Source of the DNA: Acidimicrobiales bacterium
GTDB taxonomy: Bacteria > Actinomycetota > Acidimicrobiia > Acidimicrobiales > RAAP-2
Direction: 5' to 3'
NCBI GenBank assembly: GCA_050743865.1
Contig: JBOGGE010000002.1
Coordinates: 18,152 to 42,151, forward strand
Length of the DNA: 24,000 nt
The notes beneath the pieces were generated by a model. That model saw only the letters and a list, made by a program, of their open reading frames with translations, was not told where the DNA came from and ran no database searches. Every line of letters starts with the position of its first letter. Position 1 is the first letter of the stretch. The translations under genes and the position numbers were made by a program. This document shows, piece by piece, positions 52-22,382 of the stretch.

Positions 52-1851
52 GTGGCGCCACGGGGCTGGCGCCCGTACGTGGTGGCGTTCGTCCTCTACC
101 AGGCGCTGTCGCTGGCCGCATGGTGGCACCTGGTGGCCGGCGGGCTCTCCCGGACCCTCCCGCCCGGGTCGGGGGACCCGGGCCAGGAGGTGTGGTTCCT
201 CGCCTGGCTCCCCCACGCCCTCACGGCGGGCACCAACCCGTTCTTCAGCCACGCCATCTTCGCTCCGGCCGGCGTCAACCTCCTGGCCAACACCTCGGTC
301 GACCTGCTCGGCCTGGTGCTGTGGCCGGTGACGGCGGCAGCGGGGCCGGTGGCGGCGTTCGGCCTGGCGTGCCTGCTGGCCCCAGCGGTGAGCGCCGTCG
401 CCGCCTACGCCTTCTGCGCCCGCTACGTCGCCTGGCGGCCGGCGGCGTTCGTCGGGGGCCTGTGCTACGGCTTCGGGCCGTTCGTGGGGACCGACCTGCG
501 CTTCGGCCATCTCGATCTGACCTGGCTGCCCATCCCGCCGCTGATCTTCCTGGCCCTCGACGAGCTCCTCGTGCGCCGGCGGCGCCGGCCGGTGACCGTC
601 GGGGTGGCGCTGGGCCTGGCCGTGTGCGCCCAGTTCTTCCTCTCGACCGAGATGCTGGCCGTCACTGCCGTCATGGTGGCGGCAGGCCTGGTGCTGGCGG
701 CGGCGGCGCACCCGCGCCTGGTGCTCCCCCGCCTGTCGTGGGCGTGGCCGGGCCTGGCCACGGCGGGCGGGCTGGCCGTGGCGCTGCTCGGCTACCCGGC
801 GTGGATGGCCGTGGCCGGCCCCCGCCACATCTCGGGGCCGGTGTGGCCGTACATCGACCGGCTGTCGGCGACCGTCGGCGCCTCGGTGCTGCCCCACGGC
901 GAGCTCGGCGGCGTCGCCTTCATCTCCGGCGGCAACGGCAGCTACCTGGGGGTGGCCCTGCTCCTCGTCCTGGGCGGCGGCGGGCTCGCCTACCGGCGGT
1001 CCGGGCCGCTGCGTTTCGCCCTGGCCATGGTGGTCGTCGCCTACGTCGCCTCCCTCGGCTACCGGCTCCACCTCGGTTCGGGGACCACGCCCCTCCCCCT
1101 GCCCGCCGCCGTGCTCAGCCACCTTCCTGTGCTCGACTCCGTCGTCCCCGAGCGCTTCGCCGCCCTGGTGGACCTCTTCGCCGGGCTCGCCCTGGCCCTC
1201 GTCGTCGACCATGTCCGGCGGGGGGCACCCGCTGCCATCGGTGGCCGGGGCCAGGGAGGTCGGGCCCGCCTCGCCATTGCCTCGTGCCTCGCCGTCGCCG
1301 CCCTGGCCACGATGGCCCTGGTGCCGCCGTGGCCCTACCCGGTGCGCCACCTGGCCGGGCGGCCCGCCTTCCGCTCCCCGCTGCTCTCGGCCCCGGGGGC
1401 GCCGGCGTCCGAGCCCGGGAGGGCGCGCCGGGCGGCGCCGACGGCCACCGCCGGCCGGAACGTGGTGGCGGTGTACCCGTTCGCCCCCGGCGCCGTCTCG
1501 GACCAGATGGTGTGGCAGGCGCGGGCAGGCTTCCCCTTCGACCTGGCCGACGGGTACGCGTTGGTCCCGGGGCACCACGGCGCCATCCAGTCGCCCCCGC
1601 CGGACGCCCTCTGGCTCCTCCTCGCCGCCGCCACAATCGGCACCCTGGCCCTCCCGGTGCCGCCGCCCAAGCGCCGGGCCGTGCGGGCCGCCCTCGGCGC
1701 CGACGGCATCGCCACGGTGGTGGTGCTCGGCAGGCGCCACGGGTCGGCGGACGTCCTGCGGGCGCTGACCGAGGTGCTCGGACCGCCCACGGCCGGCGTC
1801 GGCAGCGCCGTCGTGTGGGACATCGGCGACCGTCGACGGCCAGGCTCGTGA
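52..1851 (+). CDS. Polytopic integral membrane protein; possibly a GT-C-like glycosyltransferase, function uncertain
   Basis: 599-codon ORF with consistent G/C third positions. It has many hydrophobic segments (YVVAFVLYQALSLAAWWHLV, LLGLVLWPVTAAAGPVAAFGLACLLAP, GVALGLAVCAQFFLSTEMLAVTAVMVAAGLVLAAAA). There is an acidic/proline motif GDPGQEVWFLAWLPHAL after the first helix. GTG at 52 is the first start codon, but this frame is open to nt 1, so the true start could lie upstream of the window. Confidence 0.7.
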   Translation: MAPRGWRPYVVAFVLYQALSLAAWWHLVAGGLSRTLPPGSGDPGQEVWFLAWLPHALTAGTNPFFSHAIFAPAGVNLLANTSVDLLGLVLWPVTAAAGPVAAFGLACLLAPAVSAVAAYAFCARYVAWRPAAFVGGLCYGFGPFVGTDLRFGHLDLTWLPIPPLIFLALDELLVRRRRRPVTVGVALGLAVCAQFFLSTEMLAVTAVMVAAGLVLAAAAHPRLVLPRLSWAWPGLATAGGLAVALLGYPAWMAVAGPRHISGPVWPYIDRLSATVGASVLPHGELGGVAFISGGNGSYLGVALLLVLGGGGLAYRRSGPLRFALAMVVVAYVASLGYRLHLGSGTTPLPLPAAVLSHLPVLDSVVPERFAALVDLFAGLALALVVDHVRRGAPAAIGGRGQGGRARLAIASCLAVAALATMALVPPWPYPVRHLAGRPAFRSPLLSAPGAPASEPGRARRAAPTATAGRNVVAVYPFAPGAVSDQMVWQARAGFPFDLADGYALVPGHHGAIQSPPPDALWLLLAAATIGTLALPVPPPKRRAVRAALGADGIATVVVLGRRHGSADVLRALTEVLGPPTAGVGSAVVWDIGDRRRPGS

Positions 1852-2027: not shown

Positions 2028-2813
2028 ATGGGCACAGCCGACAGGGCACAGCGGTTGGCGACGACAGGCGACATCACGGCGAATGCCCTTTTCAGAGCGG
2101 TGGCCGAGACCTCCGACGACGCTGTCTTCGTCTGCGACGCAGTCGGCTCGATCACCACGTGGTGCAAGGCGGCCGAGCGGTTGTTCGGCTGTGCCGCCAG
2201 CGTCGCCCTCGGCGAGCCCCTCGACCACCTCTTCGCCGAGCACCTGCGCAAGGAGGTGCGGGCCGTTCTCGCGATGGCAATCGCCGGTGATCAGATCAAG
2301 CGCTTCGAGAGCGAGGTTCTCCTGCCCGACGGGATGCCGATGCCGGTCTCTCTCTCCCTGGGTCCGGTGGTCGACGACTCGCGGGGACATGTCGCGTCGG
2401 TCGTGATCGTCCGCGACGTCACCGAGCAGCAGCTGGCCCAAGCGAGCCTGGCGGAGGTGGAGGCTCGGCTGGAGCAGGGCGAAGCGCTGGCCCACGTCGG
2501 AAGCTGGCTATGGGATCTCAGGACGGGCACCGTGCAGTGGAGCGCCGAACTTTACCGGATGCACGGGGTCGACCCCCGTGGTTTCGACGGAACCCTGGAA
2601 TCCCACCTGCAGCTCATCCATTCGGAAGACCGCGAACGCGTCCGGGCGGCGATGAGCGCCTCGGTCTCATCGGGGGATCCCTTCGAGGCAGAGTACCGGG
2701 TGATCCGCCCCGACCACCAGGTCCAGGTCGTTCGCCTACAAGCCGAGCCCACCATCGGATCGGCAGGCACGCCGGTCGGATTGCGCGGGATCGGTCAGGC
2801 GGTGGAGGGTTGA
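2028..2813 (+). CDS. Stand-alone tandem PAS/PAC sensor protein with no recognisable output domain
   Basis: ATG 2028 is preceded by GGAG at 2017-2020. The first PAS-like block is FRAVAETSDDAVFVCDAVGSITTWCKAAERLFG...VIVRDVTEQ. A short coiled linker follows (QQLAQASLAEVEARLEQGEAL). The second, PAS_3-like block is GSWLWDLRTGTVQWSAELYRMHGVDP...IHSEDRERV...EAEYRVIRPDHQVQVV. The protein ends directly after the second PAS domain. Confidence 0.8.
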   Translation: MGTADRAQRLATTGDITANALFRAVAETSDDAVFVCDAVGSITTWCKAAERLFGCAASVALGEPLDHLFAEHLRKEVRAVLAMAIAGDQIKRFESEVLLPDGMPMPVSLSLGPVVDDSRGHVASVVIVRDVTEQQLAQASLAEVEARLEQGEALAHVGSWLWDLRTGTVQWSAELYRMHGVDPRGFDGTLESHLQLIHSEDRERVRAAMSASVSSGDPFEAEYRVIRPDHQVQVVRLQAEPTIGSAGTPVGLRGIGQAVEG

Positions 2814-2923: not shown

Positions 2924-3184
2924 TCACGGTCGGTCGTGGCCAAGCAGGCTCGTGACCCGGGCCACGAGATCCCCGCCGGCGTCCGACGGCCTGTCCTCGC
3001 CGTCGACGACAGCCGCCCACGCCCGCAGGGTGCTTCCTGCTTGCGCACGGGCGGACGAGATCACGTCTGCGAGCTCATCGGTGTCGTACAGGGCCTTCAA
3101 CGAGCGACGGAGCCGTTCGAGGTCCTTTCCGCCAGATTTGGCCCCGATCACGTACCCGATCACCAATGCCAGAGTGATGCTCAC
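2924..3184 (-). CDS. Small protein (86 aa) with a hydrophobic N-terminus, YtxH-like at the N-terminus; paralogue of the 12296-12529 product
   Basis: This is the C-terminal 87 codons of the track ORF 2924..3946. GTG at 3184 overlaps the TGA of the upstream padR::yceI gene (GTGA). GGAGG at 3192-3196 (minus-strand sense) lies 7 nt upstream. Translation: MSITLALVIGYVIGAKSGGKDLERLRRSLKALYDTDELADVISSARAQ... The rest of the 340-aa track ORF overlaps the better-supported PadR::YceI frame. Confidence 0.6.
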   Translation of the reverse strand: MSITLALVIGYVIGAKSGGKDLERLRRSLKALYDTDELADVISSARAQAGSTLRAWAAVVDGEDRPSDAGGDLVARVTSLLGHDRP

Positions 3185-4233
3185 CCGGGTACCTCCAATT
3201 CGGCCTCGGCTTGGAGCCGCACTCGTACGTCGGGATAGATGCGGAACATGAGCACGGTCGGCGAAGTCACGGCAAAGTCGCGGACATCGAAGACCTGCTC
3301 GCCGGTGATGACGAGGTGGGAGTCGGACACGGCCTTCACGCGCACCGTCCCGGTGACCGGCCTGGTGACGCCATGGAAGGTGAGCTCCCCCACGAGCCGG
3401 TAGCGGGCCCCCGGCCCGCTCACCGTGCACTCCTGCAGATCGACCGCGGCCGTCGGATAGCGGCGGGCGTCGATCCTGCGTAGGAGCTCGGCGTCGTACA
3501 ACGCCCGGCCAGAGCTGAGACGGGACACGTCGATCTCGAGGCGCGCCGACGGGGCGATGTCGGTACGCACCACCCCTGTCACGACCGCGGCGCGGATCGA
3601 TCCTCCGATCCCGATGACGCCGAAGCTCAACGGTCCCACCGTCGACCGGACCTCTACCAGCACTGCCGACCGATCGGGGACCAGGCGGAAGGAGCGCACC
3701 ACCGCCGGCTCCGTGGCAACCCAGCCGGCGCAGGCGTCCGCTGCCGGCCCGTCCAAGAGCTCGTCCACCGAGACGAGCCGTCTCCGTCCGCCGCTGCTGG
3801 ACGACACTGGCGAAGGGTACACGCCCAAGGTCAGGGCCCAGCCTCCTTCGACTTCGGCCAGCACCGAGTCGGTGGTAGCGATGGCCTGATAGCGGCGCAG
3901 GACCTGGCCGAGGTGGTCGTGCTCCTGCTTGATGACGCCCATCCACTGCCGAAGCGCCCGCCCTCCGGCATCGGTGAGCAGGTAGATCCGGCGGGCACGC
4001 CCTGCCATGGCGCTCGGCGGCGACACCTCGACGAGCCCGTCACCCTCCAGCTGCGCAAGAGCCCGGTACACAGCCGGCCGGTCGACATGGCCGAAGCCGA
4101 GCGCCTGGAGCTCCGGCACCAACCCGTACCCGTGGCCAGGCCGCTCGGAGAGCAAGAGCAATAGGGCCGGGAACATGAACCGACGGGGGGGTGCCAGCTC
4201 GAAACGCGACATCTTGTGCGCCGTTGTCGCCAT
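3181..4233 (-). CDS. PadR-family winged-helix regulator fused to a C-terminal YceI-like (lipid/polyisoprenoid-binding) domain
   Basis: The N-terminus FMFPALLLLLSERPGHGYGLVPELQALGFGHVDRPAVYRALAQLEGDGLVEV...RRIYLLTDAGGRAL is a typical PadR wHTH. The C-terminal ~165 aa (roughly nt 3184-3681) is YceI-like: FRLVPDRSAVLVEVRS...LEIDVSRLSSGRALYDAELLRRIDARRYPTA...LTFHGVTRPVTGTV...VFDVRDFAV. The preferred start is ATG 4233, with GGGAGGG 4 nt upstream on the minus strand. The track start at 4320 would add 29 aa and has no evident SD. Confidence 0.85.
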   Translation of the reverse strand: MATTAHKMSRFELAPPRRFMFPALLLLLSERPGHGYGLVPELQALGFGHVDRPAVYRALAQLEGDGLVEVSPPSAMAGRARRIYLLTDAGGRALRQWMGVIKQEHDHLGQVLRRYQAIATTDSVLAEVEGGWALTLGVYPSPVSSSSGGRRRLVSVDELLDGPAADACAGWVATEPAVVRSFRLVPDRSAVLVEVRSTVGPLSFGVIGIGGSIRAAVVTGVVRTDIAPSARLEIDVSRLSSGRALYDAELLRRIDARRYPTAAVDLQECTVSGPGARYRLVGELTFHGVTRPVTGTVRVKAVSDSHLVITGEQVFDVRDFAVTSPTVLMFRIYPDVRVRLQAEAELEVPG

Positions 4234-4453
4234 GGCACCCTCCCGGGCTGCTTGCGACCCCGTCCGGCCCCGCAGCCGATCGACCAACGCTACCCCTACC
4301 CCACTTCCCTGCCTCCCCATTCCAATTCACCCACTTCGTTGAGCCCGGACCTCTTGACGGTGTGAAAGACACTCATTTACAAGGGCAGCCGCGGGGCGTA
4401 GGACGCAGGGAGCCGCACATTTCGGCGCGGCACGCGATCGGGAGGTGGTTGTC
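4234..4453. promoter_or_regulatory. Divergent control region between padR::yceI and the hydrogenase operon
   Basis: This is a 220-bp intergenic gap between divergent starts. It contains an AT-rich island at 4354-4382 (TTGACGgtgtgaaagacactcatttacaa) with a GTGT-N5-ACAC dyad. It also holds an almost G-free pyrimidine tract at 4291-4337 with the 8-bp direct repeat CCCACTTC at 4300 and 4330. The hhyS SD GGGAGG is at 4439-4444. I could not pin down -10 elements. Confidence 0.4.
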
Positions 4454-5509
4454 GTGACGGTAACCGAGGCGCCGCCGGACGAAGCCGTCGTCCACGTGCT
4501 GTGGATCAACGCCGGGCTCAGCTGCGACGGGGATTCCGTCGCCCTCACCGCGGCGACCCAGCCGAGCATCGAGGAGATCGCCATGGGCGCGCTCCCTGGG
4601 CTTCCCAAGATCGCCGTGCACTGGCCGTTGATCGACTTCGAGTGCGGCCCGGTCGGGGGAACCGACGACTTCATCGAATGGTTCTTCCGGGCCGACCGGG
4701 GCGAGCTCGACCCGTTCGTCTTGGTGGTGGAGGGCTCGATCCCCAACGAGGCCATCAAGCGTGAGGGGTACTGGTGCGGGTTCGGCAACAATCCGGACAC
4801 CGACCAGCCCATGACGACGAGCGAGTGGCTCGATCGCCTGGCGCCGAAGGCGCTGGTGGTCCTGGCCGCCGGGACTTGCGCCTGCTATGGCGGCATTCAC
4901 GCCATGGCGGGTAACCCGACGGGCGCCATGGGCGTCCCCGACTATCTGGGGTGGGGCTGGAGGTCAAAGGCGGGCATCCCGATCGTGTGCGTCCCGGGCT
5001 GCCCCACCCACCCGGACAACCTCTCCGAGACGATCCTGTACCTGCTCTACCAGGCCACGGGGCAAGCACCGATGATCCCCCTCGACGACTCCCTGCGACC
5101 GCAGTGGTTGTTCGGCAGCACCGTGCACGAGGGCTGCGACCGAGCCGGCTACTACGAGCAGGGCGACTTCGCCAGCGAGTACGGCTCGCCCAAGTGCATT
5201 GTGAAGCTGGGGTGCTGGGGCCCGGTGGTCAAGTGCAATGTCCCCAAGAGGGGCTGGATCAACGGGGTGGGCGGCTGCCCGAACGTCGGTGGCATCTGCA
5301 TCGGCTGCACCATGCCGGGTTTCCCCGACAAGTTCATGCCGTTCATGGACGAACCGCCGGGCGCCCGGGTCTCGACGGTGGCCAGCGGCCTGTACGGCGG
5401 GGCCATCCGGGGACTGCGCCGGATCACCGCCCACACGCTCGAAGACGAGCCGAAGTGGCGCCTGCCGGGCAAAGAGCTGGTGACCGGGTACAAGGGAACG
5501 TGGAGGTAG
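4454..5509 (+). CDS. hhyS: [NiFe]-hydrogenase small subunit, group 1h/5 (Hhy-type), cytosolic with no Tat signal
   Basis: FeS-ligand pattern: LSCDGDS, GTCACYGG, VPGCPTHPD, HEGCDR, KCIVKLGCWGPVVKC, GGCPNVGGICIGCTMPGFPD. There is no RRxF twin-arginine leader. GTG 4454 lies 9 nt after GGGAGG (4439-4444). The track start GTG 4445 abuts the SD, so 4454 is preferred; the start is uncertain by 9 nt. Confidence 0.93.
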   Translation: MTVTEAPPDEAVVHVLWINAGLSCDGDSVALTAATQPSIEEIAMGALPGLPKIAVHWPLIDFECGPVGGTDDFIEWFFRADRGELDPFVLVVEGSIPNEAIKREGYWCGFGNNPDTDQPMTTSEWLDRLAPKALVVLAAGTCACYGGIHAMAGNPTGAMGVPDYLGWGWRSKAGIPIVCVPGCPTHPDNLSETILYLLYQATGQAPMIPLDDSLRPQWLFGSTVHEGCDRAGYYEQGDFASEYGSPKCIVKLGCWGPVVKCNVPKRGWINGVGGCPNVGGICIGCTMPGFPDKFMPFMDEPPGARVSTVASGLYGGAIRGLRRITAHTLEDEPKWRLPGKELVTGYKGTWR

Positions 5510-5513
5510 GACG

Positions 5514-7298
5514 GTGGCCAAAGCACTTACCGACAACGACACCGGCCTGGTGGAGATGGCCTGGGACCCCATCACCCGGATCGTGGGCAGCTTGGGGATC
5601 TACACCAAGATCGACTTCGGGAGAGGCAAGGTCGTCGAGTGCCACAGCACTTCGTCGATCTTTCGCGGCTACAGCGTCTTCATGAAGGGGAAGGACCCCC
5701 GGGACGCCCACTTCATCACCAGCCGGATCTGCGGCATCTGCGGCGACAACCACGCCACCTGCTCGTGCTACGCCCAGAACATGGCGTATGGCGTGCACCC
5801 GCCGGCGCTCGGCGAACAGATCGTCAACCTCGGCGAAGCGGCCGAGTACATGTTCGACCACAACATCTTCCAGGAGAACCTGGTCGGAGTGGACTTCTGC
5901 GAGAAGATGGTCGCCGAGACCAACCCCGGCGTGCTGGAGCAGGCCAACCGCACCGAGGCCCCGCACGCTGCCGACCACGGGTACAGAACGGTCGGCGACA
6001 TCATGCGCTCGCTCAACCCGTTCTCCGGCGAGTTCTACCGCGAGGCCCTGCAGGTGAGCCGCTCCACCCGGGAGATGTTCTGCCTCATGGAGGGCCGCCA
6101 CGTGCACCCCTCCACGCTGTATCCCGGCGGCGTCGGCACGACGGCCACCATCCAGCTGTTCACCGACTACTACACCCGGCTCATGCGCTACGTGGAGTTC
6201 ATGAAGCGGGTCGTACCGATGCACGACGACCTGTTCGACTTCTTCTACCAGGCGATGCCCGGGTACGAGGAGGTCGGCCGGCGCCGGGTGCTCCTCGGTT
6301 GTTGGGGCGCCTTCCAGGACCCGTCGGTGTGCAACTTCAACTACCGGGACATGACCACCTGGGGACGGGCCATGGGTGTGACGCCCGGGGTGGTTGTCGA
6401 CGGGAACCTCGTCACCAACGATCTGGTCGAGATCAACCTGGGCATCCGCATCCTGCTCGGCCACTCGTTCTACGGCGACTGGGGAGACCAGGAGATGTTC
6501 GTCACCCGCGACCCGCTCGGCAATCCTGTCGACCGCCGCCATCCGTGGAACCAGCACACCAACCCCGCGCCCCAGAAGCGAGACTTCGACGGCAACTACA
6601 GCTGGGTGATGGCTCCCCGCTGGTCTGACGGGAGCGATGATCTCGCCCTCGACACCGGCGGTGGTCCCCTGGCCCGCCTCTGGTCGACCGCGCTGTCCGG
6701 CCTGGTGAGCACCGACCACGTCAAGGCCACCGGCGACAGCGTGGTCATCAACCTGCCCAAGACGGCACTCAAGCCCGAAGTCAGCCTCGAATGGAAGATC
6801 CCGCGGTGGTCCAACACCATCGAGCGTGACCGGGCCCGTACCTACTTCCAGGCCTACGCGGCGGCGTCGGCTCTGGACTTCATCGAGAAGGCGTTGGCCG
6901 ACGTGCGGGCCGGCAGGACGAAGACCTGGGAGCCCTTCGAAGTTCCCGACGAGGCGATCGGCTGCGGGTTCACCGAGGCGGTCCGCGGCGTCCTGTCACA
7001 CCACATGGTGATAAAGGGCGGCAAGATCGCCAACTATCACCCCTACCCGCCGACGCCGTGGAACGCCAGCCCCCGCGACAGCAACGGCACGCCCGGCCCG
7101 TATGAGGATGCGGTCATCGACTCGCCCATCTTCGAGGAGAACGACCAGGAGCACTTCAAGGGCATCGACATCATGCGGTCGGTGCGGAGCTTCGATCCTT
7201 GCCTGCCGTGCGGCGTGCACATGTACCTCGGCAAGGGAAAGGTCCTGAAGAAGCTCCACTCGCCCACGCAGGTGGCGACTCCCGATCTCGCCTCCTGA
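5514..7298 (+). CDS. hhyL: [NiFe]-hydrogenase large subunit, group 1h/5 (Hhy-type)
   Basis: The N-terminal metal-ligand motif is TSRICGICGDNHATCS and the C-terminal motif is SFDPCLPCGVH. GTG 5514 is preceded by GGAGG at 5502-5506. A 25-residue tail after CGVH (MYLGKGKVLKKLHSPTQVATPDLAS, nt 7221-7295) matches the extension removed by the maturation endopeptidase. Confidence 0.95.
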   Translation: MAKALTDNDTGLVEMAWDPITRIVGSLGIYTKIDFGRGKVVECHSTSSIFRGYSVFMKGKDPRDAHFITSRICGICGDNHATCSCYAQNMAYGVHPPALGEQIVNLGEAAEYMFDHNIFQENLVGVDFCEKMVAETNPGVLEQANRTEAPHAADHGYRTVGDIMRSLNPFSGEFYREALQVSRSTREMFCLMEGRHVHPSTLYPGGVGTTATIQLFTDYYTRLMRYVEFMKRVVPMHDDLFDFFYQAMPGYEEVGRRRVLLGCWGAFQDPSVCNFNYRDMTTWGRAMGVTPGVVVDGNLVTNDLVEINLGIRILLGHSFYGDWGDQEMFVTRDPLGNPVDRRHPWNQHTNPAPQKRDFDGNYSWVMAPRWSDGSDDLALDTGGGPLARLWSTALSGLVSTDHVKATGDSVVINLPKTALKPEVSLEWKIPRWSNTIERDRARTYFQAYAAASALDFIEKALADVRAGRTKTWEPFEVPDEAIGCGFTEAVRGVLSHHMVIKGGKIANYHPYPPTPWNASPRDSNGTPGPYEDAVIDSPIFEENDQEHFKGIDIMRSVRSFDPCLPCGVHMYLGKGKVLKKLHSPTQVATPDLAS

Positions 7299-11029: not shown

Positions 11030-11130
11030 TCATTCGTCTCGCCAAATCGGTGCTCGTCGCCCTGGTCGTCGGAATGGTGCTCAAGTCGCTGCCCGACATC
11101 GCCCGGTACCTCAAGATCAGGGAGATGTGA
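11026..11130 (+). CDS. 34-aa hydrophobic peptide (single predicted TM helix)
   Basis: ATG 11026 overlaps the protease stop (ATGA) and is preceded by AAAGGAGA at 11011-11018. Translation: MIIRLAKSVLVALVVGMVLKSLPDIARYLKIREM. Its stop overlaps the candidate GTG start of the next gene. It is short, so the coding call rests on the SD, the coupling and the hydrophobic core. Confidence 0.55.
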   Translation: MIIRLAKSVLVALVVGMVLKSLPDIARYLKIREM

Positions 11131-11651
11131 CCTGGGTGGCTCATTACCGCATCGACCCCACACGTTCGTACGTATGGATCGACGCCCGGTCCAGCGTGCA
11201 CCCCATCCATTCCACCACCAAGGGGCTGGAGGGCTACCTCGATCTCGGCCTGGGGCCGGACGGTGCCGTCGATCTGGCGGTCATGCCGACCGGAAAGCTC
11301 TCGCTGCAGGTCAGTCGCCTCTCGTCGGGTAACCGGCTGGAGGATCGTGAGCTGCAACGACGCATCGACTCGAAGCGGTTCCCCGCCATCGAAGGGGTGA
11401 TCATCGGGATGGAGCCGATCGGCGGTGACGGGAGCTACCGGGTGAGCGGTGACATCACCTTTCGGGGAACGTCTCACCGGTACGAGGACCAGATGACCGT
11501 CAACCCGGTCGACGACAGCACGATCAAGCTCGCCGGCCAGTCGCGTTTCGACATCCGCGATTTCGGGATGGAGCCGCCCCGCATCTTGATGCTGAAGGTC
11601 GACCCGGAGGTGGCCGTGCGAGTGGAGGTGCTCGCGGTGAAGGAAGGATAG
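11127..11651 (+). CDS. YceI-like protein without signal peptide; paralogue of the C-terminal domain of the PadR::YceI regulator
   Basis: Translation: YRIDPTRSYVWIDARSSVHP...LSLQVSRLSSGNRLEDRELQRRIDSKRFPAIEG...ITFRGTSHRYEDQM...RFDIRDFGMEPPRILMLKVDPEVAVRVEV. The start is either GTG 11127 (GTGA overlap) or GTG 11136. There is no N-terminal hydrophobic leader. Confidence 0.85.
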   Translation: MTWVAHYRIDPTRSYVWIDARSSVHPIHSTTKGLEGYLDLGLGPDGAVDLAVMPTGKLSLQVSRLSSGNRLEDRELQRRIDSKRFPAIEGVIIGMEPIGGDGSYRVSGDITFRGTSHRYEDQMTVNPVDDSTIKLAGQSRFDIRDFGMEPPRILMLKVDPEVAVRVEVLAVKEG

Positions 11652-12295: not shown

Positions 12296-12529
12296 ATGGG
12301 AACCATCGTCGGAGCCATGATCGGGTACGTGTTCGGCACGCAAGCCGGACCTCAGGGGTGGGACGACCTGCGCCGTGCCTGGGGGGTGATCAGCTCCTCC
12401 GAGGAGGTGAGGAACCTGATCGACCTCAGCTTCTCGATGGCCCATGGCCTCGTGGGGCGTGGGGGCGAGCTGCTCGCCGGGGCGGCCGGAACCTCGGAGT
12501 CCCGTTCCGCACTGCGACCGGTGGCGTAG
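12296..12529 (+). CDS. Small protein (77 aa) with a hydrophobic N-terminus; paralogue of the 2924-3184 product
   Basis: ATG 12296 is preceded by GGGAGG at 12285-12290. Translation: MGTIVGAMIGYVFGTQAGPQGWDDLRRAWGVISSSEEVRNLIDLSF... It shares the IGYV-G-x3-G-x6-LRR pattern with MSITLALVIGYVIGAKSGGKDLERLRRS at 2924-3184. Confidence 0.6.
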   Translation: MGTIVGAMIGYVFGTQAGPQGWDDLRRAWGVISSSEEVRNLIDLSFSMAHGLVGRGGELLAGAAGTSESRSALRPVA

Positions 12530-21042: not shown

Positions 21043-21360
21043 ATGGCGTCGAAGCGGCTGGGGAGGACGCAGGATCCGACCATCCTGGTGCTGACCAGCC
21101 TGTCCGGGGGGCCCAAGCACGGCTACGCCCTCATCAAGGACATCGAGGCCATGGTCGGGGTGACGTTCGGGCCCGGCACCCTCTACGGCGTCCTCGGCCG
21201 GCTCGAGCAGGAGGGCCTGATCGAGCCGCTGGCCCCCGAGGGCCACCGCCGGCCGTACCGCCTGACCGCCGCCGGGGCGGCCACCCTGCGCCAGCGCCTC
21301 GAGCTCCACGCCGCCGTGGCCCGCATCGGGCTCCGGCGCCTGGGGACCCTCGGCGCATGA
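21043..21360 (+). CDS. PadR-family transcriptional regulator (short, single-domain)
   Basis: ILVLTSLSGGPKHGYALIKDIEAMVGVTFGPGTLYGVLGRLEQEGLIEP...RRPYRLTAAGAATL is a canonical PadR wHTH. Confidence 0.9.
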   Translation: MASKRLGRTQDPTILVLTSLSGGPKHGYALIKDIEAMVGVTFGPGTLYGVLGRLEQEGLIEPLAPEGHRRPYRLTAAGAATLRQRLELHAAVARIGLRRLGTLGA

Positions 21361-22382
21361 GGACCGCCAGGCTGGTCGACGCCGTGCTGGGGTGCTACCC
21401 GTCGTGGTGGCGCCGGCGCTACGGCCGGGAGGTGCAAAGGCTGGCTGCCGACCTGCTGGCCGAGGGCCGCTCCGCCATCGGGGTCGCCGCCGACCTGGCT
21501 CGCGGTGCCCTCCGGGCGTGGGCCCGGGCCGAGGGCATGCCGCCGGCCGCCCGCCTGTGGTCGGCACGCACCCGCCTGGCCCTGGCCGCCGCCGCCGTGC
21601 CGGCGGCCCTGGCCGTCCCGCTCCTGATGGTCGGGGTGTCCGTCGATCCGGTCTACCGGACGGCGGCGGCGGCCGGTGCCCTGTTCGGGACACCACCGTG
21701 GCTGCAGGTCCCGGGGCCCCACGGGTTCCTCGCCGCCCCGCCGCTCACGCTCGCCGGGTCGGTGGCCGTGCACACCGACCACGTGCTGTCGTGGCTCGCC
21801 ATCGCCCTGCTCTTCACCCTGCTCGTCGGATGGTCGTTGCTCCTCGGCGCCGTCCGGCGGGCACCGCGGCACCGGCGCCACGGCGCCACCCGGTGGGCGC
21901 TGGTGCCCGGCCTCTCCCTGGCCGCCGACGTGGGGCTCTACCTCGTCCGGGAGACCGTCCAGCCGGCCTGGGCCAAGCACGGCCCAAGGCCGCCGGTCCC
22001 CCTCGGCGGCGACCCGGCCGCCGCCCACGCGCTGGGCATGGCGCTGGGCGCCGTCGCCCTGGCCGGCTGGCTGGTGTCCGTCGCCGCCGTGGTGATGGCG
22101 GCCCGGTGCTCGTGGGTCGACCCGACCGAGCTTCGCCGGGGTCGGGCGGTGGTGGTCGTGCTGGCCGGCGTGGTCGCCCTACTGGCCGCCGCCTTTCTCG
22201 TGCGGGGGGTGGCCTTGGCCGTCCAGGCGAGCGCCGGCCCGGGGTTCACCACCGTCGCCTTCGTCCACCAGGGAGCCTGGGTGCCACTGGCCGCCGCCTT
22301 CCTGGCCGCGGCCATGGCCACGGCCGCCTGCGCCCGCTCCGCCGCCCGGTCGTGGCGGGTGCTCGCCGCCCTCTTGACCTGA
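21357..22382 (+). CDS. Integral membrane protein of unknown function, translationally coupled to padR
   Basis: ATG 21357 is an ATGA overlap. It has a cytosolic N-terminus followed by several hydrophobic helices (LALAAAAVPAALAVPLLMVGV, WLAIALLFTLLVGWSLLLGAV, VVVVLAGVVALLAAAFLV). The PadR + membrane-protein pairing is a common arrangement. Confidence 0.75.
   Translation: MRTARLVDAVLGCYPSWWRRRYGREVQRLAADLLAEGRSAIGVAADLARGALRAWARAEGMPPAARLWSARTRLALAAAAVPAALAVPLLMVGVSVDPVYRTAAAAGALFGTPPWLQVPGPHGFLAAPPLTLAGSVAVHTDHVLSWLAIALLFTLLVGWSLLLGAVRRAPRHRRHGATRWALVPGLSLAADVGLYLVRETVQPAWAKHGPRPPVPLGGDPAAAHALGMALGAVALAGWLVSVAAVVMAARCSWVDPTELRRGRAVVVVLAGVVALLAAAFLVRGVALAVQASAGPGFTTVAFVHQGAWVPLAAAFLAAAMATAACARSAARSWRVLAALLT

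Follow-up and report, generated by a model that had tools for sequence, protein, structure and literature searches.

Group 1h [NiFe]-hydrogenases are a major biological sink for atmospheric H2 and help dormant soil bacteria to survive. What switches on their expression is the question raised by the locus described here, a 24,000-nucleotide stretch of an Acidimicrobiales genome (hereafter the window). A second question, to our knowledge still open, is by what route the soluble 1h enzyme gains access to the quinone pool. The window, which comes from an abundant soil lineage, offers candidates for both: a regulator with a 15-bp dyad and a promoter, and a pair of paralogous lipocalin barrels. The regulator is a PadR::YceI fusion protein encoded divergently from a group 1h hydrogenase operon, and so far it appears to be the strongest candidate for the on-switch of the atmospheric-H2 enzyme in soil Acidimicrobiales. 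According to a 2026 study, the direct transcription factors of the high-affinity hydrogenases Huc and Hhy had yet to be identified (PMC13098282).

An earlier note, made from the sequence of this DNA, knew of no characterised PadR::YceI regulator and of no role for YceI proteins in hydrogenase biology, and the literature gave incidental co-mentions only. What appears to be new is a PadR one-component regulator with a previously undescribed lipocalin input and a candidate operator, apparently dedicated to the 1h hydrogenase in a single order. The facts stated in the earlier note are all confirmed, and the candidate operator/promoter element specific to these operons is an addition to it.

The PadR::YceI fusion and its linkage to hhySL

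The fusion gene, its parts and its presumed target are placed as follows:

3181 to 4233, minus strand: PadR::YceI fusion gene, 350 aa, the span including the stop codon (open reading frame (ORF) and translation, Pfam, public gene call)
3949 to 4164, minus strand: PadR winged-helix DNA-binding domain, residues 24-95 (Pfam, AlphaFold2, Foldseek, phmmer)
3703 to 3948, minus strand: linker, conserved and helical in its first half, then variable and disordered (alignments, AlphaFold2)
3196 to 3702, minus strand: YceI-type lipocalin beta-barrel domain, residues 178-346 (Pfam, AlphaFold2, Foldseek, hhalign)
4454 to 7298, plus strand: hhyS-hhyL, the structural genes of a group 1h [NiFe]-hydrogenase, presumed target (Pfam, HhyL identity, L1/L2 motifs)

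The start of the fusion gene was placed at ATG 4233, where the N-terminus is the same in homologues and the NCBI gene call agrees. The protein is 100% identical to a protein of the Acidimicrobiales metagenome-assembled genome (MAG) GCA_050743925.1; the GC content of the window is about 70%. The earlier note had described the product as a PadR winged helix-turn-helix (wHTH) fused to a complete YceI domain, and both halves exceed their Pfam cut-offs: PadR (PF03551) scores 50.5 bits against a cut-off of 27 at residues 24-95, and YceI (PF04264) scores 49.9 bits against 23.7 at residues 211-344. An AlphaFold2 model built on 69 homologues has a confident wHTH with a long helix at residues 17-118 (helices 17-30, 35-44, and 52-64; wing strands 68-70 and 83-86; long helix 88-118) and a confident beta-barrel at residues 179-346. 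The long C-terminal helix that follows the PadR domain reaches approximately residue 135.

Foldseek matches the N-terminal part to PadR structures (6abt, 4esb, LmrR, and Rv3488; template modelling score TMt 0.65-0.86), and PadR-family PDB chains are also matched by sequence with phmmer. This part has the wHTH fold and the C-terminal dimerisation helix of the PadR family. The alignments contain an invariant PGYGY, RPAVYRALAQLE helix, and DGLV, residues typical of DNA-binding PadR members. The barrel matches BcnB, TT1927b, HP1286, and E. coli YceI (Foldseek E 4e-11 to 5e-10, TMt 0.73-0.82). The C-terminal domain, on which the earlier reading depended, therefore scores as YceI with Pfam and folds as a YceI barrel with AlphaFold2 and Foldseek. 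A predicted DNA-binding output and a putative sensory input are joined in a single, presumably cytoplasmic polypeptide, a one-component architecture conserved in more than 1000 homologues.

Between the two domains, the conserved half of the linker reads WMGVIKEEHD..LGQVLRRYQATGT.DAVLAEVEGGW..SPVSS in the alignments, and the predicted local distance difference test score (pLDDT) is below 50 at residues 114-173. Because more than 1000 homologues share this conserved linker, the fusion is evidently a real gene and not a frameshift artefact. These homologues were found at E<1e-5; the best 120 all have both Pfam domains and are 61-69% identical to the fusion. A search of 1.8 billion representatives gave 97 clusters (50% identity) at E<=1e-30, many of them fragments, and JGI already labels many homologues 'PadR.../polyisoprenoid-binding protein YceI'. 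The family is large and uncharacterised, and its architecture is neither rare nor previously unseen.

One genome per species was scanned with family-specific patterns, which would miss distant versions in other phyla; 103 loci were confirmed and 80 kept. All 80 belong to Acidimicrobiales (Acidimicrobiaceae, Microthrixaceae, and Ilumatobacteraceae). The hhySL genes lie within 10 kb of the fusion in every one of the 66 loci of at least 20 kb, and hhyS is directly divergent from it in 50 of these. The stand-alone YceI gene of the hydrogenase operon is present in 62 of the 66, so that the fusion and the stand-alone copy do co-occur with hhySL, as the earlier reading required. The arrangement varies: in four loci (L014, L050, L053, and L074) the stand-alone YceI gene is transcribed alone and divergently from the fusion, and in three Microthrixaceae loci (L051, L058, and L059) its immediate downstream neighbour is hhyS. 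The intergenic element described below stands between the stand-alone YceI gene and the fusion in the first group, and between that gene and hhyS in the second.

The divergent operon is separated from the fusion by a 211-nt spacer. It begins with hhyS, hhyL, a NifU-like gene, DUF5947, DUF6084, a gene of about 470 aa without a Pfam match, and a HycI-type protease, and continues with YceI, hypA, hypC, a 77-aa ORF, hypD, hypF, a hypC-like gene, a SIS-domain gene, and hypE. For hhyS, GTG 4454 (giving 351 aa) is a likelier start than the longest-ORF GTG 4445; the latter overlaps the GGGAGG ribosome-binding site (RBS), and the public gene call and related loci favour a GTG/TTG at 4454. HhyL is 77% identical to the enzyme of C. 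necator H16 pHG1 and 82% identical to that of M. intracellulare. It carries TSRICGICGDNH and SFDPCLPCGVH, which we take to be the L1/L2 signature motifs of group 1h. The accessory order from hhyS to the protease (hhyS-hhyL-NifU-like-DUF5947-DUF6084-~470 aa-protease) matches the C. necator, M. intracellulare, and S. fungicidicus operons. Identity, motifs, and gene order agree with the earlier placement of the fusion and its small companion gene divergent from a group 1h operon, and we assign the operon to a group 1h (Hhy, or 'group 5') hydrogenase by its sequence. The three comparator operons have the same core order and lack the YceI, PadR, and PAS genes altogether. The fusion, the stand-alone YceI, the small proteins, and the PAS protein thus appear to be an Acidimicrobiales-specific addition to a conserved enzyme cluster; since the set was found only in Acidimicrobiales and is absent from the other 1h operons examined, it is apparently not a general group 1h feature.

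The DNA element upstream of hhyS

Three features were recognised between the fusion and hhyS:

4359 to 4373, plus strand: candidate operator GGTGTGAAAGACACT, family consensus GGTGC-N5-(G/A)CAC(C/T)
4376 to 4404, plus strand: putative hhyS promoter, with -35 TTTACA at 4376-4381, a 17-nt spacer, and a -10-like TAGGAC at 4399-4404
4412 to 4431, plus strand: GC-rich inverted repeat/hairpin GCCGC-N10-GCGGC in the presumed hhyS 5' untranslated region (5'UTR), between the putative -10 and the RBS

When 61 divergent intergenic regions were aligned, a near-invariant 21-24-mer stood out from otherwise unconserved DNA, and it is near-invariant across about 75 loci. On the hhyS strand the element reads CGGTGCAAAAGACACTCATTTACA; in the window it spans 4358-4381 as CGGTGTGAAAGACACTCATTTACA. 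Dyad symmetry is present in the 15 nt that precede the -35 box. In divergent loci the dyad is a perfect GGTGC-N5-GCACC or a 17-bp CGGTGTGA-A-TCGCACCG, and such perfect symmetry is what is expected for a dimeric wHTH protein. The site alignment includes a conserved TTTACA-N17/18-TA..AC or GA.ACT; TTTACA and the downstream box look like the -35/-10 pair of the hhyS promoter.

There is a single element per 21-kb locus. A position weight matrix (PWM) scan of all loci gave one strong site in each and otherwise inconsistent weak matches, and neither the fusion promoter nor the PAS gene showed evidence of a site. The element always lies about 70-90 nt upstream of hhyS, even where the fusion lies elsewhere. 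In one locus (L048, 7902-9185) an ISL3-type transposase and a second ORF lie between the element and the fusion, and the element has stayed with hhyS. In four others (L056, L065, L066, and L069) the fusion and hhyS are 5-8 kb apart, and the element is again with hhyS. Where stand-alone YceI directly precedes hhyS, the element is found between them (L051, L058, and L059), and in the four loci in which the stand-alone YceI gene is transcribed separately (L014, L050, L053, and L074) the element precedes that gene. An exact-motif scan of 241 million metagenome records, which would miss divergent sites, matched 22 contigs; all 22 matches are hhyS promoters and no further targets were revealed. Allowing up to 6 mismatches, the 21-mer is absent from the 1h promoters of C. 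necator, M. intracellulare, and S. fungicidicus, three comparators that all lack the fusion.

Because the element travels with hhyS or the YceI gene, has exact metagenome matches at hhyS promoters alone, and is absent from the three comparator operons without the fusion, it appears to be more than a core promoter and to mark a small regulon peculiar to this lineage. Among the conserved neighbours, the PadR::YceI fusion alone has a DNA-binding domain. Comparison by eye led us to reject a CRP/GlxR, DosR, or SigF/SigH/extracytoplasmic function (ECF) identity; the spacing is GTG-N7-CAC, against what we take to be GTG-N8-CAC for CRP/GlxR, and the element is presumably also unlike DosR sites and SigF/SigH/ECF promoters. 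Downstream of the promoter, the position of the hairpin is kept across loci with compensatory stems (GCCGC/GCGGC, GGCGC/GCGCC, and CGCGC/GCGCG) and an often conserved loop motif, CACAAC. Possible roles are mRNA stabilisation, hairpin-based regulation, or that of a second protein-binding site.

The paired barrels and small proteins

Both the fused barrel and the small protein encoded with the fusion have a second copy within the hydrogenase operon:

11127 to 11651, plus strand: stand-alone YceI paralogue, between the maturation protease and hypA (Pfam, AlphaFold2)
2924 to 3184, minus strand: 86-aa small protein with a glycine-zipper-like hydrophobic N-terminus, GTGA-coupled to the fusion
12296 to 12529, plus strand: 77-aa protein paralogous to the 86-aa one, encoded between hypC and hypD (BLASTP, hhalign)

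The stand-alone YceI scores 42.3 bits with the Pfam YceI model (cut-off 23.7). Its AlphaFold2 model has a pLDDT of 90, with the polyisoprenoid-binding TT1927b as the top PDB match (E 1.2e-11). Both YceI copies form the eight-stranded antiparallel lipocalin-like barrel shared with T. thermophilus TT1927b, E. coli YceI, B. cenocepacia BcnA/BcnB, H. pylori HP1286, and the S. degradans X158 domain (E 1e-11 to 5e-10, Foldseek TM 0.73-0.83). The earlier note had judged the in-operon copy paralogous to the fused barrel, with about a third of positions identical by eye; measured identity is 35% over 179 aa (E 9e-31), and the profiles of the two families align over 172 columns with hhalign (E 4.4e-38). 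Since the two barrels match each other at E 9e-31, against 1.2e-3 for the fused barrel and a solved YceI structure, they seem to form a divergent lineage-specific subfamily whose members resemble one another far more than they resemble the solved YceI structures. A tblastn search of 72,556 plasmids gave no homologue of the stand-alone copy. Unlike known YceI proteins, one copy is fused to a DNA-binding domain and the other lies within a hydrogenase maturation cluster. E. coli YceI is periplasmic. The two copies described here have no signal peptide and are presumably cytoplasmic, in contrast to the secreted BcnA and to Neisseria YceI, which was found in periplasmic extracts (PMC9113575).

The most conserved stretch of the barrel sequence is SPTVLM(L/F)RIYPD at residues 321-333 of the fusion (window positions ~3235-3273), with PPR(I/V)LMLKV(D/E)PEV as its counterpart at residues ~150-160 of the stand-alone YceI. 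It is also the least confident part of both AlphaFold2 models, and could serve as a mobile lid or as a surface for interactions. A barrel of the same subfamily occurs in a non-hydrogenase context on a single 6.7-kb contig (P0292, JGI sample 3300041965), where a 628-aa protein combines a SpoIIE/PP2C phosphatase with a C-terminal YceI barrel 45% identical to the fused one; its gene neighbours are an amidase and a copper amine oxidase. This SpoIIE/PP2C::YceI protein offers weak independent support for a signalling role of the barrel subtype. Two other representative-library matches (P0291 and P0376) were set aside and look like frameshifted, R-rich assembly artefacts.

The 86-aa ORF is a real gene. 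Its coupling to the fusion, claimed in the earlier note, is borne out by an overlap that reads GGG TGA / GTG AGC, with GGAGG 7 nt upstream of the GTG. The gene was also called independently in the public record, and counterparts of 84-85 aa, most of which overlap the fusion gene at an ATGA/GTGA, occur in 43 of the 80 related loci. Its GC content by codon position (0.70/0.52/0.79) is coding-like. The gene is present in 33 of the 66 loci of at least 20 kb and absent where the gap between the fusion and the PAS gene is below 120 nt; one large subclade leaves no room for it. Because it is missing from about half of the lineages, the 86-aa gene is not essential to the design. The 77-aa gene is present in 50 of the 66 loci. 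That it is a paralogue of the 86-aa protein, as had been proposed, agrees with a BLASTP match over the N-terminal 42 aa (E 6e-7) and with the family profiles (hhalign probability 99%, E 5.8e-18, 71 columns). Searches of Pfam and NCBIfam gave no match to the 86-aa protein and only a sub-threshold glycine-zipper match to the 77-aa protein; a YtxH-like resemblance was not supported.

Proposed signal input and competing explanations

The evidence tips, if narrowly, towards the 350-aa protein being a dedicated, locally encoded one-component transcription factor for the Acidimicrobiales group 1h (Hhy) cluster. A PadR-type dimer would bind the GGTGC-N5-(G/A)CAC(C/T) element that abuts the hhyS -35 box and, where the stand-alone YceI gene is a separate unit, would bind the same element at that promoter. 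The site would be centred near -45 if the promoter assignment is right, a position that fits class-II-like activation and -35 occlusion alike, so either activation or repression of hhy could result. The YceI lipocalin barrel, carried on a flexible linker, would be the signal-input domain. If so, YceI lipocalins would be a new type of sensor domain for one-component regulators. Known PadR regulators (B. subtilis PadR, L. lactis LmrR, M. tuberculosis Rv3488, L. monocytogenes PadR 6abt, and the V. cholerae activator AphA) have the same wHTH and long dimerisation helix; they are typically local and respond to hydrophobic compounds, in likeness to what is proposed for the fusion. However, ligand sensing in these regulators takes place at the dimer interface or within a wholly helical C-terminal domain, and we found no YceI barrel on a known PadR regulator in the literature or the PDB.

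Since the fused barrel appears to be a lineage-specific paralogue of the operon YceI, the two would most likely share one hydrophobic isoprenoid ligand. Evidence from the YceI family favours an isoprenoid lipid, most plausibly a respiratory quinone, as most of its crystal structures hold octaprenyl compounds or ubiquinone-8, ubiquinone-8 is apparently a natural ligand, and Neisseria YceI co-purifies with ubiquinone-8 (PMC9113575). In redox proteins, the X158 YceI-like domain binds ubiquinone-8 (PMC8981238), and the polyisoprenoid- and ubiquinone-8-binding family has been tied to cytochrome b561 and to cytochromes associated with lytic polysaccharide monooxygenases (PMC8981238, PMC9113575). Respiratory menaquinone/menaquinol would be the leading candidate here. 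The stand-alone YceI would handle the ligand for the enzyme, and the fused copy would signal to the promoter how much of it is available or in which redox state it is. The second duplicated pair, made up of the 86-aa and 77-aa proteins, would probably work with the YceI barrels, the 86-aa copy being dispensable.

A more specific proposal, which we put forward with considerable doubt, is that the state of the menaquinone pool is read by a lipocalin: the YceI protein would ferry menaquinone to the 1h enzyme and its PadR-fused copy would switch hhy. The cytoplasmic stand-alone YceI, perhaps docked at the membrane by the glycine-zipper protein, would move menaquinone between the membrane and the soluble 1h hydrogenase as a functional analogue of HucM, and the fused copy would switch hhy transcription by the amount or redox state of its bound quinone. 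If true, this would couple atmospheric-H2 scavenging directly to electron-donor starvation, high-affinity hydrogenases would have their first direct regulator, and quinone sensing would gain a new form that does not depend on cysteines. The logic of reading the quinone pool would then be shared with ArcB, RegB, and QsrR/YodB-type regulators. These sense quinones via redox-active cysteines or a membrane kinase, whereas the putative sensor of the fusion is a lipocalin cavity, for which quinone sensing of this kind is not known to have been described.

HucM of the group 2a hydrogenase Huc in M. smegmatis provides a route from a high-affinity hydrogenase to lipophilic menaquinone (PMC10017518). 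The stand-alone YceI may be an alternative solution to the same problem for the 1h enzyme, a role that we infer; HucM is a coiled-coil tube and a structural subunit, whereas YceI is a barrel without homology to it. The uptake hydrogenases of aerobes are under the control of HoxBC-HoxJ-HoxA (C. necator), DosST/DosR, and, indirectly, GylR (M. smegmatis) (PMC13098282). Those regulators are two-component systems or a regulatory hydrogenase, unlike the single PadR::lipocalin polypeptide, and none of them is encoded beside the operon in the window.

Several observations weigh against the fusion being a ligand-responsive regulator of hhy. The canonical PadR box, ATGT-N8-ACAT, is absent from the 61 fusion-hhyS intergenic regions, in which a relaxed TGT-N8-10-ACA has four scattered matches only. 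In place of that inverted repeat, the hhyS promoter has a conserved dyad of another kind, GGTGC-N5-GCACC, immediately before its -35 box; the half-site spacing of this dyad is shorter than that of the canonical box, and its promoter-proximal half is degenerate in the main clade (relaxed to ACACT). The element contains the -35 hexamer, and its conservation may in part be that of a plain core promoter. Where the genes lie apart it is missing from the promoter of the fusion gene, and classical autoregulation is thus not indicated; in most loci the fusion promoter has a separate TTGACA-N17-18-TA.GAT pair. The invariant residues of the barrel are often charged (R, D, and E) and a lipid pocket is not obvious. 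Ligand-bound YceI structures are only weakly similar in sequence (E 1.2e-3 to 1wub), and their identity to the fusion, 13-20%, is too low for residue-level transfer. Moreover, all organisms involved are uncultured MAGs, and the system is apparently confined to uncultured Acidimicrobiales.

Another factor may bind the element. The protein encoded next to the fusion and its small companion may be the real sensor or a co-sensor:

2028 to 2813, plus strand: PAS-PAS protein of 261 aa that lacks an output domain, encoded convergently to the fusion and the small gene (Pfam PAS)

The PAS-PAS protein is as conserved as the fusion, being the convergent neighbour in 76 of the 80 loci and in 62 of the 66 of at least 20 kb, but it has no DNA-binding or output domain. 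Its 3' end overlaps the small ORF in many loci. It is possibly a partner or co-sensor in the same regulatory unit.

It is conceivable, though unlikely, that the fused barrel senses a partner, pairing with the stand-alone YceI or the small proteins to give product feedback on the amount or assembly of accessory proteins. The barrel and the small protein were duplicated together, a pattern typical of interacting pairs, and solved YceI proteins are commonly dimers. The charged invariant residues would suit such an interface, as would the low model confidence of the SPTVLM.RIYPD stretch in both paralogues, often a trait of interface or lid segments. However, about half of the lineages lack the 86-aa copy, an identity of about 35% between the barrels is low for heterodimerising paralogues, and YceI barrels are established ligand carriers.

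We think it quite unlikely that the fusion regulates only its own operon, comprising the fusion and the 86-aa membrane-type protein, and not hhySL, as in many stress modules that join a PadR to a small membrane protein. The conserved 21-mer would then be an extended core promoter or UP-like element, or would bind a different, unlinked factor. PadR genes beside small membrane-protein genes are common, and the window has a second such PadR gene at 21043-21360. The -35 hexamer within the element, its difference from the canonical PadR box, and its failure to accompany a separated fusion gene also fit this explanation. Against it, the linkage to hhySL is found in all 66 long loci and has outlasted several rearrangements, the putative sensor domain has a paralogue encoded in the hydrogenase operon, and the fusion is often kept where the small gene is absent. 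The element is also found at the stand-alone YceI promoter and is absent from the 1h promoters of organisms without the fusion, and its dyad symmetry extends past the -35 box. A non-regulatory protein, mainly a cytoplasmic lipid/quinone carrier or hydrogenase accessory factor that uses PadR for dimerisation or nucleoid tethering, would suit a barrel better conserved than the PadR half in some comparisons and a stand-alone paralogue among maturation genes, but it is highly improbable given the invariant DNA-binding-type residues (PGYGY, RPAVYRALAQLE helix, and DGLV), the confident wHTH model that matches DNA-binding PadR structures, and a fusion gene that is always on the promoter side of the cluster.

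The second PadR in the window is minimal (21043-21360, plus strand; 105 aa) and 36% identical to the PadR domain of the fusion over 83 aa. It is coupled to a 341-aa ORF without a Pfam match (21357-22382, plus strand) and appears to be a PadR module of the usual kind with no relation to the hydrogenase cluster. At the other end of the window, a 599-aa ORF (52-1851, plus strand) with a GC content of 0.95 at third codon positions has no Pfam match and no counterpart in the 80 related loci. Molybdenum-cofactor genes (ThiS-like, MoaA-like, MoaC, and FdhD) lie just past this ORF, outside the window.

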